A stretch of 64,000 bases of DNA from Leptospirales bacterium (GTDB taxonomy: Bacteria; Spirochaetota; Leptospiria; Turneriellales; JAOUFE01), in contig JBEQLE010000011.1 of assembly GCA_040326155.1 (NCBI GenBank), positions 8,077-72,076 of the forward strand. The letters run 5' to 3'. Below are positions 2,342 through 29,412 of the stretch, one piece after another (positions within the stretch are counted from its first letter, which is position 1; every line of letters begins with the position of its first letter). A model generated the notes under the pieces. That model was not told the origin of the DNA, did no database searches, and worked only from the letters and a program-made list of their open reading frames with translations. The position numbers and the translations under genes are program-made.

Positions 2342-3904
2342 TTAAAATGAAAGTCCGGCAGCCAGGTCTATAGAAAATGCATTGTAATCACCGGTTTGCG
2401 ATGAAATTTCATAGCCTAAGCCTTCTTTTAAAATAATCTTACTGGCCAACATCTGTTTTAAATACACTTTAAATATCAGAGAGTTCGTATGATAAGATGG
2501 GAAAGGTGAACCCGAAGTGGCTTTAAGCCAATCGAAACCGAAAAATCCAAACCCGTTTCCATATGTTCGTGGCACTTTCTCATTCAACTCGAAAAAGTAA
2601 AAACGTTCTGTAATTGAGAAACCGAAAACGGTCGGTACTTTTTTAAACATCGGCTGAATTTTCCCAAATGTAATATCAATTGTTAAATCATAAATGCCGA
2701 AATAATGTCCATTCATCTTGTTTTTAGGTGGCATCAGATACTCAATAGCAAAAGCCTCTTGTACATCGAAAATTAGCGCCATTTCAAAGTGTCCCGGAAG
2801 AAACTTCCTATCCTCATTCGCCGGTACCGTTTTTCGAAATTCAATATTAAATTTGCTTAAATCATACTCAATGCTCACCGGTCCTGTTTTAGCATCGGTG
2901 AACAGGTATCTGGGGAATATACTTATACCAAAATAGTTATACTCGGTGCTGGTGCCAAACATTACTCCGAGCTTCACGTCATTCCGTTTCGGATAATCGA
3001 CATTTGTTATAAACTGCCCACGGCTTGGTACATTGTCCTCCGCGAAATTCGCCTGTGAAAAAAGGATACCAGCTCCGAAAAATCCCTTTTTCCCAAAGTA
3101 GATGAATTCCATTTTTTCTTCCACAGAAACAAAACTAGGAAACTCCATTACAGAGGGCGGAGACTGTATATTAAATCGAAGCTGAACCTCAGGGGAGAGC
3201 CAGAAGTTCCCATACAACCCCAGAGGAAAAAGTTCTGTGGAAGGCGGCCCATATTGACTAACCTTCATAGTTTTATACTTTTGCGCAAAAAGAGCTGTAG
3301 GTACTTTATTATAACGAAATTGTCCCGAAATACTAAATCCAACCTCTGACTTTGGACGTGTCGCTGGTGGGGCCTGTTGGCCTGGCTCTGTCGCCGAGTC
3401 CGTTTCGGTGCCTTTATTTTGCAGCTCTTCCATTCGACGCTGGGCGGCCATCCGATATGCATCCGGTAGCCACTCGCGAACCTCCGCATTATACGGATCT
3501 CGTTGCAATAACATCTCTCCATATATTATCGCTTCATCGAACTTCTCAGTTTCGTATAAAAGCCTTCCTATATTACCCATGGCGGGCAATAAATTAGGAT
3601 TCCTCTCCAAAGCCTTCTTATAATGAATTATTGCCTTTTTACGCTCACCGGAAAGCATATAAGTGTAGGCTATATTATTATAACTTGCAGCGGCTTTTGC
3701 ATCTTGAATAGAAATCGCTTTTTTAAACTGACGAATAGCGTCTTTGTACTCTCCGCGTTGCGCCGATTGAACACCTTCTTCGTTTAATACATCCGTATTC
3801 TCGTCCGCTGTTTCCGAATCGGTCTTTTCCTTACCACTTTGTCCATAAACAGATGATACCAATGGTATGATCATGAACGATATAAAAATAATAATTTTGC
3901 GCAT
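2342..3904 (-). CDS. Secreted TPR protein with C-terminal beta-rich (possibly outer-membrane) domain
   Basis: Signal peptide; N-terminal TPRs; alternating beta-strand pattern ending in Phe. Confidence 0.7.
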   Translation of the reverse strand: MRKIIIFISFMIIPLVSSVYGQSGKEKTDSETADENTDVLNEEGVQSAQRGEYKDAIRQFKKAISIQDAKAAASYNNIAYTYMLSGERKKAIIHYKKALERNPNLLPAMGNIGRLLYETEKFDEAIIYGEMLLQRDPYNAEVREWLPDAYRMAAQRRMEELQNKGTETDSATEPGQQAPPATRPKSEVGFSISGQFRYNKVPTALFAQKYKTMKVSQYGPPSTELFPLGLYGNFWLSPEVQLRFNIQSPPSVMEFPSFVSVEEKMEFIYFGKKGFFGAGILFSQANFAEDNVPSRGQFITNVDYPKRNDVKLGVMFGTSTEYNYFGISIFPRYLFTDAKTGPVSIEYDLSKFNIEFRKTVPANEDRKFLPGHFEMALIFDVQEAFAIEYLMPPKNKMNGHYFGIYDLTIDITFGKIQPMFKKVPTVFGFSITERFYFFELNEKVPRTYGNGFGFFGFDWLKATSGSPFPSYHTNSLIFKVYLKQMLASKIILKEGLGYEISSQTGDYNAFSIDLAAGLSF

Positions 3905-4350
3905 AACTAATAAATCACCCTTTTTAATTCACCTTAATGGTATTGTCGTCTACAGTAAATGAAAATTTAAAGGTTTTTTTACCTTCATAAGCCTATTTAA
4001 CAGTTTTATATGACGTTCTTGAAACGCTTTTTCTCATAAATATTTACTGTTTTTTATAAAAGAAAACATGGCAGAAGCCCACCAGTGTAATCATTTACGA
4101 TGGAGCGAACTCTAAATGAATTTGGTTATGTATTCTTCTCTGGAAATACTTCTTTTCATTTGAATACATCAAAGGTTAATGGTCAGTAATGAGTTCAATA
4201 CATTTTTTTCTTGTCTTAACTTCTGTAGTAGTTTTATTTCAGCAACAGGGTTCCAAACTCGGACTTAAATTCCAGTCTGTTGTAATATTGAATTGTTGTG
4301 AAGCTGTTTGAAAGAAATAAAAGATTAAAAGAAATATAAGGAATTTATAA

Positions 4351-22023: not shown

Positions 22024-22587
22024 CTACCAGTATTCTGATTCATGGAATCTGTCCAGCTGGAGGCGCACGTATTCTGGTGGTGAGGTGGGTAATTCAACAC
22101 CTCCATACAATTTAATACCCAGCCAGTAGAACGCGAGACGGTGAAACTGCGAAGAGTTCTCGCTCAACCCCCTTACAAGCTCATCCAAATACCACTCCAG
22201 GGCCAGACGAACCAAACGAGACATCGTCCAATGCATTAACCCGGCCGTCATGCGAATAAACATCTCGTCAGAACCATAAAGGCACAACTTATGCCGATGC
22301 AAATGCTCTTCACTGCTTTGCAACTTTACTCGCCGATTCAAAGACTGATATTTCTTCCACTTATCATGTTTTCCTGATTTCAACACACAATTCGTAATAA
22401 ACATAAAAGGATCTTTCCTTTTAATTAAACGAAAAACACAATAACGTACCACCCAGGAATAACTCGTTTTCTTCGCCTCAGAAATTCGCACTACTTTTTC
22501 CCAGGCATTCGCGTTCACCCGAATCTCCAGAAAATGATCTACATGTACGCCCAGTCTATAAAGTGGTTCACTGTTTCTATTCACCAT
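22024..22587 (-). CDS. Uncharacterised protein, putative tandem ribbon-helix-helix (paralogue of 56960-57523)
   Basis: LEIR...YSWVVRY, HRHKLCLYGSDEMFIR...MSRLVRLAL, LGIK.Y.GV, terminal S.YW. Confidence 0.75.
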   Translation of the reverse strand: MVNRNSEPLYRLGVHVDHFLEIRVNANAWEKVVRISEAKKTSYSWVVRYCVFRLIKRKDPFMFITNCVLKSGKHDKWKKYQSLNRRVKLQSSEEHLHRHKLCLYGSDEMFIRMTAGLMHWTMSRLVRLALEWYLDELVRGLSENSSQFHRLAFYWLGIKLYGGVELPTSPPEYVRLQLDRFHESEYW

Positions 22588-23203: not shown

Positions 23204-23467
23204 ATGGAACAAGTAACCCTCGAAGAATACCCAGGCAAAGGTTTTACCCCTGAAGGACCGGCGGGACCAGAAATAAACATGCCACCCGATGGAGAGTATG
23301 AAGATGTAGATTATAATAAAGATAAATTTCTTGGCTCTACGAAATCCCCACCAGGGTATCGGAGCAAAATAATACACTTAGAACCGAATACAGATAAGTA
23401 CGAAAAATGTTTAGAACAGTTCCAAGAGAAGATACAAGAGCATATTATAAATGAAAAACCTGACTAA
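23204..23467 (+). CDS. Small acidic protein with DKFLGSTKS motif
   Basis: 87-aa ORF; motif shared with the next gene. Confidence 0.65.
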   Translation: MEQVTLEEYPGKGFTPEGPAGPEINMPPDGEYEDVDYNKDKFLGSTKSPPGYRSKIIHLEPNTDKYEKCLEQFQEKIQEHIINEKPD

Positions 23468-23507
23468 ATATTTCTTGCCATGACACCGGCTGCATACATG
23501 GTACATT

Positions 23508-23903
23508 ATGTCCAAGCCAATTCAAGATAAAATACTAAAAACCGGTGCCCTTTTATTTTCTGCCGCCATCGGAATTAGCATATTATATGCCGCCTCCAAC
23601 GAAAAATCTAATATTAAAACAGAGCAAGTCGAGCAAATACAAACAGAAGAGGAAACTCCGAAGTTGACCCTGGAACAAGAAGAAGAGTGTGCAACACTCA
23701 AAATGGATTATGAAAACGAGAAAAGAAAATACGATGACAAGTATCTCAGCACCACAAAATCGGCAGCCCCTGCAATAACCCTTTTTGAACTGGAACAAAA
23801 ATGGAAGGAAAAATGTAAACCTGATTCTGCAGGCGCTCCCGAATCAGCTGACACATTAAATTCACCCGACCTTATTATTCCCAACGACCCTGAAAATAAA
23901 TGA
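23508..23903 (+). CDS. Small exported/anchored protein with DKYLSTTKS motif
   Basis: N-terminal hydrophobic helix; two Cys flanking the motif; ATGA overlap with desaturase. Confidence 0.75.
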   Translation: MSKPIQDKILKTGALLFSAAIGISILYAASNEKSNIKTEQVEQIQTEEETPKLTLEQEEECATLKMDYENEKRKYDDKYLSTTKSAAPAITLFELEQKWKEKCKPDSAGAPESADTLNSPDLIIPNDPENK

Positions 23904-24709
23904 TACTACTGCTAAACGAATTTGTTGATATATCAATCTATTTTTTACTCATCGGCATAGGGCTCGCACCGCTCGAAAGAGTCTTTCGTAAAAACAGACA
24001 ACCATTCTTTCGTAAAGAGTGGTGGACCGATGTCACCTTCTACCTGTTGCAAAATATGGTTTGGACAAAAGCCACGCTTTTTTGCCTCATCTTTATCGAC
24101 GGTCTAACAACAAACTTCGACCAATCTGCGTTACGCAATTTTATTATGGGATTGTCTTTCTGGGCGCAAACCATTTTAGTATTTTTTTTATCAGACCTGC
24201 TCATTTACTGGGGCCACAGACTATCTCATAAAAGCGATCTACTCTGGAGATTTCACCGGGTCCACCATACCCCCGTCGCGCTCGACTGGGCTGCGGCTTT
24301 TCGGGAGCATCCGCTCGACAATATTTACACACGAATTTTAGTCAACCTGCCACCACTGGCTATGGGGTTTTCCCTGGAGAGCGTTTCGACATTTGTTGTG
24401 TTCCGAGGTCTTTGGGGGAACTTTATTCATTCCAATACGCCTTTTGGCCTGGGGCCTTTTAAATATATTCTGGGTTCGCCAAGACTGCACCACTGGCACC
24501 ACGACATAAAATACAATAGTCGCTGCAACTTCGCCAACCTCATGCCCTTAATGGACGTCATGTTCGGAACATTCTACGACCCTGGAAAATTTCCCGAAAA
24601 GTATGGAATACCTGAAAACATTTCACATAACTATTTTGCCCAACTCATCACCCCGTTTTTGCCGAAAAAACTTAGACATAAATTTAACGCGAAACTGGTG
24701 AAAAGGTAA
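23900..24709 (+). CDS. Sterol desaturase / fatty acid hydroxylase superfamily membrane di-iron enzyme
   Basis: His boxes HRLSH, HRVHH, HSN, HHWHH. Confidence 0.93.
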   Translation: MILLLNEFVDISIYFLLIGIGLAPLERVFRKNRQPFFRKEWWTDVTFYLLQNMVWTKATLFCLIFIDGLTTNFDQSALRNFIMGLSFWAQTILVFFLSDLLIYWGHRLSHKSDLLWRFHRVHHTPVALDWAAAFREHPLDNIYTRILVNLPPLAMGFSLESVSTFVVFRGLWGNFIHSNTPFGLGPFKYILGSPRLHHWHHDIKYNSRCNFANLMPLMDVMFGTFYDPGKFPEKYGIPENISHNYFAQLITPFLPKKLRHKFNAKLVKR

Positions 24710-24919: not shown

Positions 24920-25064
24920 TTAGTAAATTTCATCATGTTTTCCAATATCAACTAATATTGCCTTACTTTTTTCTTCACTAAATTGAAAAATTAAACGGTG
25001 ATCATATGTAATACGAAGTGCCCAACATTCTTTTAAAGCCTGGATCCCATACGATTTCAATCAT
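24920..25064 (-). pseudogene. YafQ/RelE-type toxin with internal deletion and frameshift
   Basis: MIEIVWDPGFKR joined out of frame to LKECWALRITYDHRLIF...DIGKHDEIY. Confidence 0.8.
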
Positions 25065-25266
25065 TTAAATCTTTCATTAAATCCTTAACGGACCCGACTT
25101 TAGACTTTCCATTTTTAAAGCTGGATATGGCTTCATTGCTACGCTGACGAATATTGTCACGTCTGGCTTCGATAAGCATTTTATCAAACACTTCTTTAAC
25201 ATATTCCTTGTCTTCCAGAGCAAGTTCATCCAATTCACTGATCACTTTATCAATCGTTACTGACAT
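25057..25266 (-). CDS. Putative type II antitoxin
   Basis: 69 aa ending GSVKDLMKDLND; overlaps toxin start. Confidence 0.75.
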   Translation of the reverse strand: MSVTIDKVISELDELALEDKEYVKEVFDKMLIEARRDNIRQRSNEAISSFKNGKSKVGSVKDLMKDLND

Positions 25267-25554: not shown

Positions 25555-25767
25555 TTATTGCCAGTCGACGAGATTGATATTTTCAATTCGCTTAAATTCT
25601 CGTGTATTGTTTGAAACCAATACATAGTCATTCATCATTGCTGTAGCTGCAATCATTAGATCATATGGTCCGATAGGTTCACCTTTTCGTTCTAGCGTAG
25701 CTCGAATTTTCCCACAGAATTTGGCTGCACCATCATTAAATTCTGCCGTAGCAAAAGAGTCTAAGAA
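25555..25767 (-). pseudogene. vapC: VapC (PIN domain) toxin C-terminal remnant
   Basis: Manual translation FLDSFATAEF...IRATLERKGEPIGPYDLMIAATA...LVSNNTREFKRIENINLVDWQ. Confidence 0.85.
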
Positions 25768-27339: not shown

Positions 27340-28425
27340 ATGGCTGAAGAATGGGTTGAACAGATGCAAAATCAGGTGAATACGCTTGAAAAACTCCAGA
27401 AATATATTAATGTCTCAGATTCGGAAGCTGAAGCAATTCAGTCCATGGAAACAAGATGGGGTACTACACCCTACTTTGCTTCTTTAATGGATAAGGATGA
27501 CCCCAACTGTCCTATCCGACGTCAGGTAATTCCATCCATGCAAGAAAATAAAAATGTATGGGGCATGGAAAACTATCTCGTCTGGAAAGAAAATAGAGCA
27601 ACAGAAGAAGTTCGCCCCGATACCATCGCCCGACAATACAAAGATCGTATAGCTTTTACGGTTACGGAAGTTTGTGGTATATATTGCCGTCACTGCTTTC
27701 GCAAAGAGTTAGTTGTAGACCGAAAATTAAAGTTGCGTTTTGATATTGAAGAAGGGCTAAAGTGGATTTCAGAACACAAAGAAATTCGCGATGTACTGGT
27801 TACCGGTGGCGACCCCTTGATTTTATCAGACGATAAACTCGAATACATTGTCACCAAACTTCGTGAAATACCCCATATACAAATGATACGTATAGGTACA
27901 CGCTTTCCCATTATTTTGCCTCAACGAATAACAGAGGGCTTAAAAAAAGCCATCGGGGGTTTTCACAAAGTACCAGTCTGGATAAACACACAGTGCAATC
28001 ACCCGAACGAAATAACGGAGCATACCGCAAAAGCCGTTTACGAACTTTTAAGTTGCGGCATTAACGTAGGCAACCAGGCAGTTTTACTCAAAGGGATTAA
28101 TGACGATGTCGATACCTTCCGAGAATTACATCAAAAATTATTGCGCACCCGAATTCGTCCTTACTATTTATTTTATTGTGAACCTGCGCCGGGCATAGAC
28201 CACTTTCGCACTCCTGTAGAAAAAGGCGCGGAGTTAATACGCGACGCCTTGCGAGGTCATACTACCGGTTTGGCGCAGCCTATGTATGTACTGGCAACGA
28301 AAATTGGTAAAATTCCACTGATGCCCGATTATTATATGGTAAATAAAGATGAGAGTGAATATACACTGCGCAACCATCGTGGCGAAACGACTAAAATTCC
28401 GGTCATCCCGGACGTAGAGCCATAA
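27340..28425 (+). CDS. KamA family radical SAM aminomutase
   Basis: CGIYCRHCFRK; VTGGDPL; NHPNEIT; NQAVLLKGIND; GKIP lysine. Confidence 0.92.
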   Translation: MAEEWVEQMQNQVNTLEKLQKYINVSDSEAEAIQSMETRWGTTPYFASLMDKDDPNCPIRRQVIPSMQENKNVWGMENYLVWKENRATEEVRPDTIARQYKDRIAFTVTEVCGIYCRHCFRKELVVDRKLKLRFDIEEGLKWISEHKEIRDVLVTGGDPLILSDDKLEYIVTKLREIPHIQMIRIGTRFPIILPQRITEGLKKAIGGFHKVPVWINTQCNHPNEITEHTAKAVYELLSCGINVGNQAVLLKGINDDVDTFRELHQKLLRTRIRPYYLFYCEPAPGIDHFRTPVEKGAELIRDALRGHTTGLAQPMYVLATKIGKIPLMPDYYMVNKDESEYTLRNHRGETTKIPVIPDVEP

Positions 28426-28436
28426 ACCTTTAATAG

Positions 28437-29228
28437 TTAATAGTTAGTTTTGTTCACTCTTTTCCATTTGTTGAAAGCGCTCAAAGAGTTATCTGTGGTA
28501 CATTGAAAAACATGCATCGTTCTTGCATAATATGGTTTCGCTAGTTCTTCATAAAGTTCTTCATCTGAAAAATTGACCCCTTGAACAGCCGCGTCAAATC
28601 TGGTGGCAGCAAAAAACATTTTTCTTACATTCGCCCAGCTAATGGAAGAAAAACACATGGGGCATGGTTCGGCGCTGCTATAGATTATGCAATGTGACTT
28701 TTCTCCGGGTTGCGGAAGGTTCGAAGCTCCTTTTTCAATATTACCAAGATTGAATACCCCGAGAGAGTGGCATGCGCTTCGAATCGTCATTACCTCAGCA
28801 TGAGCCGTTGGGTCGTTAATCTTTGTAACCTGATTATGATTTGTCCAATACCGTATAATTTCATTTGTTTCATCATCAATCTGTAAAATTACCGCGCCAA
28901 AAGGACCACCTTCCTTCGCAATAGATTTTTTTGCTTCCTCACAGGCAAGATGCATCCACTGGTCACCCATAATTTGTATCTCTTTATAAATTTCTTCCAC
29001 TTTAATATTCGCAGTCTGCACAGGATAATATTTACAATCATCCTGGTTTGTAAGGGTACAATCCGGAACATATTCATCCCATTTCTGATGATAGTCTGCC
29101 GAATTAGAATTTACCGAAACTATTTTAAATTCGTAAATTTCTCCCTTACCGTCGACCGGTGGGGCTAAATACGGCGGCGCAGCTTCATGTTTTTTATTTT
29201 GGTAGTTAAAGTGCAAAGTTTTATACAT
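28437..29228 (-). CDS. Nucleoside/guanine deaminase (CDA fold) with N-terminal extension
   Basis: GGPFGAV, DPTAHAE, SAEPCPMC; ATG 29228 preferred. Confidence 0.88.
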   Translation of the reverse strand: MYKTLHFNYQNKKHEAAPPYLAPPVDGKGEIYEFKIVSVNSNSADYHQKWDEYVPDCTLTNQDDCKYYPVQTANIKVEEIYKEIQIMGDQWMHLACEEAKKSIAKEGGPFGAVILQIDDETNEIIRYWTNHNQVTKINDPTAHAEVMTIRSACHSLGVFNLGNIEKGASNLPQPGEKSHCIIYSSAEPCPMCFSSISWANVRKMFFAATRFDAAVQGVNFSDEELYEELAKPYYARTMHVFQCTTDNSLSAFNKWKRVNKTNY

Positions 29229-29412
29229 AGTTCTTACCTTTTCCGTTTTTTTGGATGATAACCAGATTATTTTATGATTCAATATACGTACACATTTTTT
29301 TAGTTTTTACATATGTTTAAACATGATTACGCCATGGGTTATGGAACCGCATCTCGATTACGATTGAATATTAAAACCCTTTACCGAATGTCTTACCGGT
29401 CGATCAAACGTT

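Follow-up and report, generated by a model that had tools for sequence, protein, structure and literature searches.

At positions 23204..24709 of a 64,000-nucleotide stretch of DNA from a Leptospirales bacterium, here called the window, two small open reading frames (ORFs) precede the gene of a membrane di-iron enzyme on the forward strand, and the second of them forms a two-gene cassette with the enzyme gene. All three had been placed here by an earlier sequence-only reading, and their positions were confirmed. ORF2 (P0002, 23508..23903, 131 amino acids, YDDKYLSTTKSAAP) is the conserved, motif-bearing partner, composed of an N-terminal membrane helix, an acidic linker and a Cys-bracketed motif. 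Its hydrophobic helix (about residues 12-29, 23541..23594), with basic residues on the N-terminal side, is predicted to be a signal anchor or a signal peptide, and the motif YLSTTKS (K84, 23742..23762) lies between C61 (23688-23690) and C103 (23814-23816). An ATGA overlap joins ORF2 to the gene of P0003 (23900..24709), a 269-amino-acid member of the FA_hydroxylase (PF04116) superfamily and of the motif-linked clade described below. Helix, bracketing Cys, overlap and intact His boxes are all as the sequence-only reading had claimed. ORF1 (P0001, 23204..23467, 87 amino acids, YNKDKFLGSTKSPP) is a lineage-specific chimera without a membrane helix, an accessory that stands outside the conserved cassette.

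The two small proteins share one short island, FLGSTKS in ORF1 (K47, 23327..23347) and YLSTTKS in ORF2, and this observation was borne out. The strict pattern common to both occurs in only these two of the 44,450 six-frame ORFs of the 4.26-Mb genome, and a weight matrix built on motif copies from other loci gives 14.2 bits to ORF1 and 14.5 bits to ORF2, with a chance of 3.6e-4 of reaching such a score in an 87-amino-acid protein of this genome, for a likeness noticed after the fact. Other parts of the first description have to be revised. A DK run had been counted in the shared motif, and the 'DY-K' run ahead of the ORF1 motif is inherited from FliF. The tripeptide KPD, regarded as a second motif, is present in ORF1 and ORF2 as described and absent from two ORF2 orthologues, and was rejected. 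Two motif proteins had been assigned to the system; what is conserved is a single motif gene with its enzyme. The N-terminal half of ORF1 is a FliF fragment.

P0003 scores 103.1 bits against Pfam FA_hydroxylase (cut-off 31) and matches no other family. Its His boxes (H106xxxH110, H119xxH122H123, H137, H177 and H197xxH200H201; 24215..24502) are intact, and the boxes are conserved at 100% in 108 clade sequences, which were compared with 30 near-outgroup and 44 far-outgroup sequences. The clade fixes G50, Q51, E136, Y143, T144, R169, G170, W172, G192 and N213 at 94-100%, against 0-20% in the near outgroup; E136, R169, W172, N213 and Q51 reach 98-100% in the clade and 0% in the 30 nearest outgroup sequences. 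Two signatures follow from these residues, R-E136-H-P (24302-24313 in P0003) and F-R169-G-x-W172 (24401-24415), and the helix behind H137 carries an unusual number of polar residues (D140, Y143, T144, N149). The protein is read as five membrane helices, and its AlphaFold2 model has a mean predicted local distance difference test score (pLDDT) of 91. The top structural match to the model is Scs7p, a weak one (VIA-align; Z 4.4, root-mean-square deviation 6.6, 182 aligned, residues 27-262), and Foldseek returned nothing at E<=0.001. The intact His boxes are shared with Scs7p/FA2H and ERG3-like members of PF04116, from which P0003 differs in an extra N-terminal helix, the absence of a cytochrome b5 domain, its own polar set and a linked motif protein. 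Among NCBIfam models, only the OlsE equivalog NF052566 matched the 20 clade members scanned, with P0003 at 96.4 bits against a cut-off of 475, and source records name the clade enzyme merely 'sterol desaturase family protein' or similar. Four clade or near-clade enzymes (P0103, P0128, P0129 and P0130) carry C-terminal START/polyketide-cyclase, VWA, RCC1 or HEAT domains; each is a single record in which read-through errors are possible.

The partner proteins, of about 60-310 residues, are helix-anchored and of low complexity, and they carry one to five copies of a motif of the form hydrophobic-hydrophobic-[PSG]-[SGT]-[ST]-K-[SA]. Across 168 copies the consensus is [VFLIYM]-[MLF]-[PS and others]-[SGT]-[S90/T10]-K-[S81/A10], where the K and the preceding S/T stand at 100% as positions demanded by the search pattern itself; hydrophobic residues also occur at +3 to +5 after the motif. 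Among 79 partners with complete 5' ends, one copy is present in 20, two in 42, three in 11, four in 5 and five in 1, and a hydrophobic helix precedes the first copy in 70. The copies are spaced 8-102 residues apart in sequence rich in Pro, Ser, Lys and Ala, and Cys makes up 0.2% of the outer region of the partners. Scaffolds are diverse. The ORF2-type scaffold (ORF2, L001 and L002) has a Cys-bracketed segment whose two Cys are kept in both orthologues, with C61, T82, K84, S85 and C103 invariant in 3/3 members; seven Myxococcota loci have a single motif, FFGGTK-V/I, directly after the membrane helix; and in L020 the motif sits on a TonB_C-domain protein. Pfam and NCBIfam hold no family for ORF1 or ORF2, and 14 aligned partners gave only weak, scattered matches there. 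In the ESM Atlas there was no usable feature match for ORF2, and a Bacteroidota-type partner reached only unnamed clusters below 0.9. The idea that the Myxococcota partners resemble Flp pilins was dropped, none of the three scanned having an Flp match in Pfam. One further motif partner (L123:2378-2995) has a weak match to a TonB-dependent receptor plug between two copies (E 0.034).

The association of motif gene and enzyme clade was assessed in 80 genome loci with the enzyme, 30 loci from relatives and 80 metagenome loci with a clade alignment. In a first count, loci were binned solely by BLAST score to P0003 and the motif was sought within 900 nucleotides upstream on the same strand. It was found in 78/88 loci at >=200 bits (a bin that holds the window's own locus and duplicates), 1/4 at 170-200 bits and 4/72 below 170 bits, with 26 loci having <450 nucleotides upstream left out; on the reverse strand and downstream, the top bin gave 1/88 and 3/86. 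The sequence-only reading had mentioned such proteins beside sterol-desaturase genes in other phyla and had proposed this enrichment as its own test, and the claim survived it. The final tally covered 212 loci, of which 32 with <600 nucleotides upstream were dropped; positives were defined by the signature REHP plus [FY]R[GNA]xW, and a hydrophobic helix followed by the motif core was required upstream. A helix with 1-5 motif copies was present in 98/107 signature-positive and 0/73 signature-negative family loci (reverse strand 1/107, downstream 2/94), and collapsing at 70% identity left 24/28 against 0/47 groups, in a count that was not blind, as these same loci had supplied the signature and the Myxococcota variants were already known when the core pattern was broadened. 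A blind test with the matrix fixed beforehand found 2-5 copies at 8/8 new signature-positive loci from the phylum samples and the motif in 0/2 signature-negative ones.

In a FastTree phylogeny of 81 enzymes, the motif-linked members form one group with support 0.80, or 1.0 when L013 is included, whose upstream gene encodes a helix and the variant FMHSTKT. L015 is unmarked in the tree, its motif gene sitting one gene further upstream; L055, first marked positive there, has a matrix score below zero and was placed outside the clade. When the 1,389 ORFs flanking 112 clade loci were clustered, there emerged no third gene common beyond close kin or generic signalling domains, and no peptidase or transporter gene recurring beside the cassette. 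A conserved gene of about 119 amino acids without a Pfam match lies between motif gene and enzyme in four related loci (L015, at 443-802, L084, L090 and L173). In L016, from a long-read bin, the motif gene (3627-3996) is seemingly split over two reading frames, and the sequences of that locus resemble Turneriella-titled loci though its record is titled Mesorhizobium.

The cassette was found in Spirochaetota, Planctomycetota, Bacteroidota and Myxococcota, patchily and at one copy per genome; in the present assembly, too, the P0003 enzyme is single-copy, and its closest relatives are in records titled Spirochaetia and Leptospirales. Enzyme matches at E<=1e-75 occurred in 2/200 sampled genomes of Bacteroidota, 8/150 of Planctomycetota (6 with the signature) and 13/150 of Myxococcota (12 with the signature), the phylum names being taken from the titles of the centre loci L013, L004 and L020. 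No clade member turned up in 151 genomes sampled from the phylum of L076 (titled Verrucomicrobiia) or in 151 from that of L063 (titled Acidobacteria). Within one family of the host's order, the motif gene accompanies 10/11 enzyme-positive genomes, the eleventh being cut at a contig start, and 0/8 enzyme-negative ones; no P value is attached, because kin are not independent. A clade profile retrieved 3,654 protein clusters at E<=1e-60 among 8,000 scored, near outgroups included, and the signature is present in 118 of the top 120.

Motif part and enzyme have also been joined in single proteins. A long-form search returned nine proteins, and three separate gene fusions, in both orientations, were recognized. 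P0124 (635 amino acids) and P0127 (654 amino acids), two of the nine and 51% identical to each other, consist of a helix, four or five motif copies and the enzyme, and P0288 (418 amino acids), from another lineage, of a helix, two copies and the enzyme. P0171 has the reverse order, with the enzyme followed by a helix, YLPATKS and an AgmX/PglI domain. P0124/P0137 (of the same full length) and P0140/P0288 are each represented by two records, while P0171 and P0127 are single sequences in which assembly or frame errors are possible. The AlphaFold2 model of P0124 predicts the enzyme well and gives pLDDT <50 to the five motif segments, from a 137-row alignment with two rows over the motif part.

Taken together, linkage and fusions point to one clade of the FA_hydroxylase family that would have become specialised on a short peptide motif, in what may be a two-gene protein-modification cassette. 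The reading favoured here, held at about even confidence from sequence features, is that a dedicated oxidase modifies the motif, probably at its lysine, before or during export. A disordered protein, tethered to the membrane and finally located outside the cytoplasm, would bear 1-5 copies of the motif, and the enzyme would oxidise the motif with O2 and housekeeping electron donors. Lysine oxidation would, by analogy, be the simplest chemistry for this enzyme class, either as hydroxylation (+16 Da), like that of OlsE on the ornithine head group, or as C-epsilon oxidation to an aldehyde, with D99, E136 and D140 beside the His boxes as putative holders of the amine. The free copy number, the unrelated scaffolds, the fixed [ST]-K pair and the remodelled polar pocket all fit a substrate tag. 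As the iron site is predicted to face the cytoplasm, modification would take place before or during export, as for HvfA and the bufferins, or on a motif loop reaching in from outside. Speculatively, modified lysines might then be displayed multivalently in the periplasm, where they would cross-link the envelope or bind ligands. A complex prediction of P0003 with ORF2 and two irons scored 0.02 against a mark of 0.32 and carries no weight either way.

Several observations weigh against the favoured reading. No member of the superfamily is known to act on anything other than lipids. The enzyme has 4.0 K+R in loop 27-42, compared with 0.2 for its N-terminal end and 1.2 for loop 68-88, and by the positive-inside rule these charges put the N-terminus on the outer side of the membrane and the His boxes on the inner side; the topology is in line with that of Scs7p, whose N- and C-termini face the cytosol (PMC10002949). 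In the N-terminal fusions, the motifs lie between an N-in anchor and the outward N-terminus of the enzyme, and in P0171 the motif follows an extra helix after the inward C-terminus. D-[ST]-[ALVIMT] sequons, which mark extracytoplasmic glycoproteins in Bacteroidota (PMC10897501), number 39 against 6.2 expected in 14 Bacteroidota-type partners (chosen by sequence feature and guanine-cytosine content, not by taxonomy) and 15 against 13.9 in 62 others. Several independent signs put the motif outside the cytoplasm, namely the geometry of both fusion types, the pair of conserved Cys, the presence of TonB_C/AgmX domains and the glycosylation sequons. The charges flanking the partner helix are near-balanced (+1.26 before, +1.16 after; 33 versus 26 of 70), so that orientation is not settled by charge alone. 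From the sequences, motif and di-iron site thus seem to lie on opposite membrane faces. Since the motifs of N-terminal fusions are made before the enzyme domain, their modification prior to export would have to occur in trans. The linkage, too, is imperfect, with 9/107 signature-positive loci failing the final tally; several of these are filter misses, in that L016, L129, L138, L159 and L216 do carry motifs, and L120 and L184 are without a clear motif copy.

The opposite-face topology leaves room for other arrangements. A tentative one, clearly less probable than the favoured reading, is that the enzyme modifies a tag displayed on the far membrane face, through a transmembrane pocket or a reactive lipid product; such a tag would be graftable onto unrelated envelope proteins, as seen with the TonB_C and AgmX domains and the FliF loop. 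The main rival to the favoured reading, also less probable than it, is that the enzyme oxidises a lipid and the motif protein is its non-covalent periplasmic partner, an activator, sensor or tether whose motif binds the outer face of the enzyme or a phosphate-bearing envelope ligand. Besides topology, this agrees with fusions, which are typical of subunits, with the seven Myxococcota loci in which one motif comes right after the helix, and with the hydrophobic residues on both sides of the [ST]K core. However, a motif that occurs in as many as five interchangeable copies, on scaffolds without relation to each other, looks more like a substrate tag than like a stoichiometric subunit; most of the invariant residues peculiar to the clade (Q51, E136, T144, R169, W172 and N213) are, by sequence position, in the membrane half beside the His boxes rather than in the outer loops; and no lipid-pathway gene recurs among the flanking ORFs. 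Of the two roles that the sequence-only reading had offered the motif, substrate and docking peptide, the first is the more probable, and topology keeps docking in play.

The covalent variant, in which a reactive lipid product made inside is captured outside by the motif Lys or Ser, as transmembrane lipidation or a Schiff-base relay, would reconcile the invariant [ST]-K pair with the opposite-side topology. The polar helix after H137 and the conserved Cys on either side of the ORF2 motif, suggestive of a closed hairpin, are in keeping with it, and an aldehyde-forming member of the family exists in alkylglycerol monooxygenase. Nevertheless, the literature searched offered no precedent and the flanking ORFs no transferase or reductase gene accompanying the pair, and such a relay appears improbable. 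Most improbable of all is that the two genes are merely co-inherited and act independently, or that the motif is modified by another, unlinked enzyme. Small cassettes do travel together, kin are not independent samples, and L120 and L184 are among a few loci without a clear motif, but the linkage holds over four phyla and wholly different scaffolds, survives the insertion of a third gene (L015, L084, L090, L173) and has given rise to fusions in both orientations.

The favoured reading follows, by analogy, the logic of exported proteins modified by iron enzymes, with new parts. HvfA and the bufferins bear Sec signals, are modified by multi-iron enzymes and are exported, and HvfA has repeated motifs (PMC11252979, PMC11626156); MNIO substrates have also been proposed that are anchored in the membrane and extend low-complexity tails into the periplasm, or that are joined to further domains (PMC12452194). 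Like the MNIO (DUF692) systems, the cassette pairs the gene of a small protein bearing an export signal with that of a multi-iron enzyme and needs no dedicated exporter. It differs in that its enzyme is polytopic and of the FA_hydroxylase family, where theirs is a soluble MNIO, in that [ST]-K takes the place of Cys as the fixed residues, in that no DUF2063-type gene recurs and in that enzyme-motif fusions exist. As for peptides that are made by ribosomes and modified after translation (RiPPs) and MNIO-type systems, a ribosomal precursor-like gene is tightly linked to the enzyme (98/107 vs 0/73, and fusions), and a short conserved core, often repeated, is set in scaffolds that vary and mostly have a hydrophobic helix near the N-terminus; there is neither an MNIO enzyme nor an MNIO partner gene in the cassette, and Cys, at 0.2% of the outer region, does not fit as the target. 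The RiPP-like pair of the sequence-only reading holds for its core, scaffold and linked enzyme, while the partners are not short leader/core peptides and have no conserved peptidase or transporter gene beside them.

Two further systems are instructive. In His-Xaa-Ser repeat systems (HxsC radical S-adenosylmethionine (SAM) maturases, TIGR03977), a short motif recurs in variable proteins and enzymes are tied to it by neighbourhood; motif and enzyme class are different there and several genes are involved, whereas the cassette has one membrane enzyme. OlsE, of the same di-iron superfamily as P0003, hydroxylates C4 of the ornithine lipid head group, and thus oxidises a diamino-acid side chain, although it acts on a lipid head group and no partner protein is mentioned for it in the available part of the source (PMC12971839).

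No paper describing the motif-enzyme system was found in full-text searches, whose scope took in few subscription papers. The near-constant pairing of motif gene and enzyme, with its occasional fusions, suggests an undescribed bacterial system where a lipid-type iron enzyme modifies, or works through, a protein. The superfamily is annotated as lipid-acting, and a large branch of it has the motif protein as its only constant companion. Should the motif prove to be the substrate, the superfamily would acquire a protein chemistry and RiPP-style mining a class of membrane enzyme not found described in these searches, and a portable tag with one enzyme could serve as a protein-labelling tool. Far-face modification would amount to a new kind of protein modification in bacteria and would give the superfamily a new role, and action across the membrane or lipid capture would be categorically new; a motif protein acting as partner would provide such an enzyme with a dedicated periplasmic one.

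ORF1 has a separate history. Its residues 7-39 (23222..23320) match residues 331-361 of the FliF of the same genome (G000:C88, L081:3675-5393; tblastn E 2e-10); codon by codon, 13 are identical, 10 differ synonymously and 8 change the amino acid, and the synonymous excess points to selection on the protein sequence, in ORF1 or in the donor. The likeness drops from just before the motif, which takes the place of FliF sequence here, and the next 20 codons have 2 in common. The block matches FliF-sized frames in its own genome and in 37/40 relatives, its own FliF being the best among 41 genomes. Residues 325-354 of B. burgdorferi FliF are the rod-binding beta-collar loop (bioRxiv 10.64898/2026.10.14.759264), and the similar position suggests that the ORF1 block is the same loop; ORF1 keeps the loop alone, lacks the signal and the domains that build the ring, and continues into a motif copy. 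Measured by the features of FliF (YscJ_FliF and YscJ_FliF_C domains, about 570 amino acids, two membrane helices), ORF1 has no Pfam match and so neither domain, and an intact fliF is present on C88.

A conserved ORF1 family was rejected for want of any homologue of similar length, and a plain ORF2 paralogue on the absence of a significant DNA match, the ORF1 tail compared with three ORF2-type tails giving shuffle P values of 0.03, 0.39 and 0.66. The most fitting view of ORF1 is that of a local chimera by which the motif was gained or copied, possibly a tagged FliF loop or a remnant, and a motif by chance is unlikely. In G021, which also has a full FliF, a probable lipoprotein of 175 amino acids (L204:2084-2611, reverse strand, contig C3) carries the same FliF loop segment, with no motif and no significant Pfam match, so that free-standing FliF-loop proteins arose more than once.

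Around the cassette, a promoter/terminator scan stayed at shuffle level (8 vs 5.8 and 4 vs 2.6). Upstream, a divergent 187-amino-acid ORF (22024-22587, reverse strand) has no Pfam or NCBIfam match, and in the gap of about 615 nucleotides between it and ORF1 the only long forward-strand ORF is a 101-amino-acid frame. Downstream, on the reverse strand, lie toxin-antitoxin remnants, namely a RelE/ParE-like C-terminal piece behind a 69-amino-acid antitoxin-like ORF (24920-25266) and a PIN-domain piece without a start (25555-25767), and the cassette may thus occupy an insertion-prone spot. Carriage by a plasmid or phage was rejected, as identity in the best matches was no higher than 35% and 30%. 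The KamA-type radical SAM gene 2.6 kilobases downstream was likewise set aside as a participant, none appearing among the recurring neighbour clusters in flanks of only 1.5-4 kilobases. This gene (27340-28425, forward strand) encodes a KamA-family protein that exceeds the cut-off of TIGR00238 and has its best score to arginine 2,3-aminomutase (381 vs 600), and it is convergent with a deaminase-family gene at 28437-29282.

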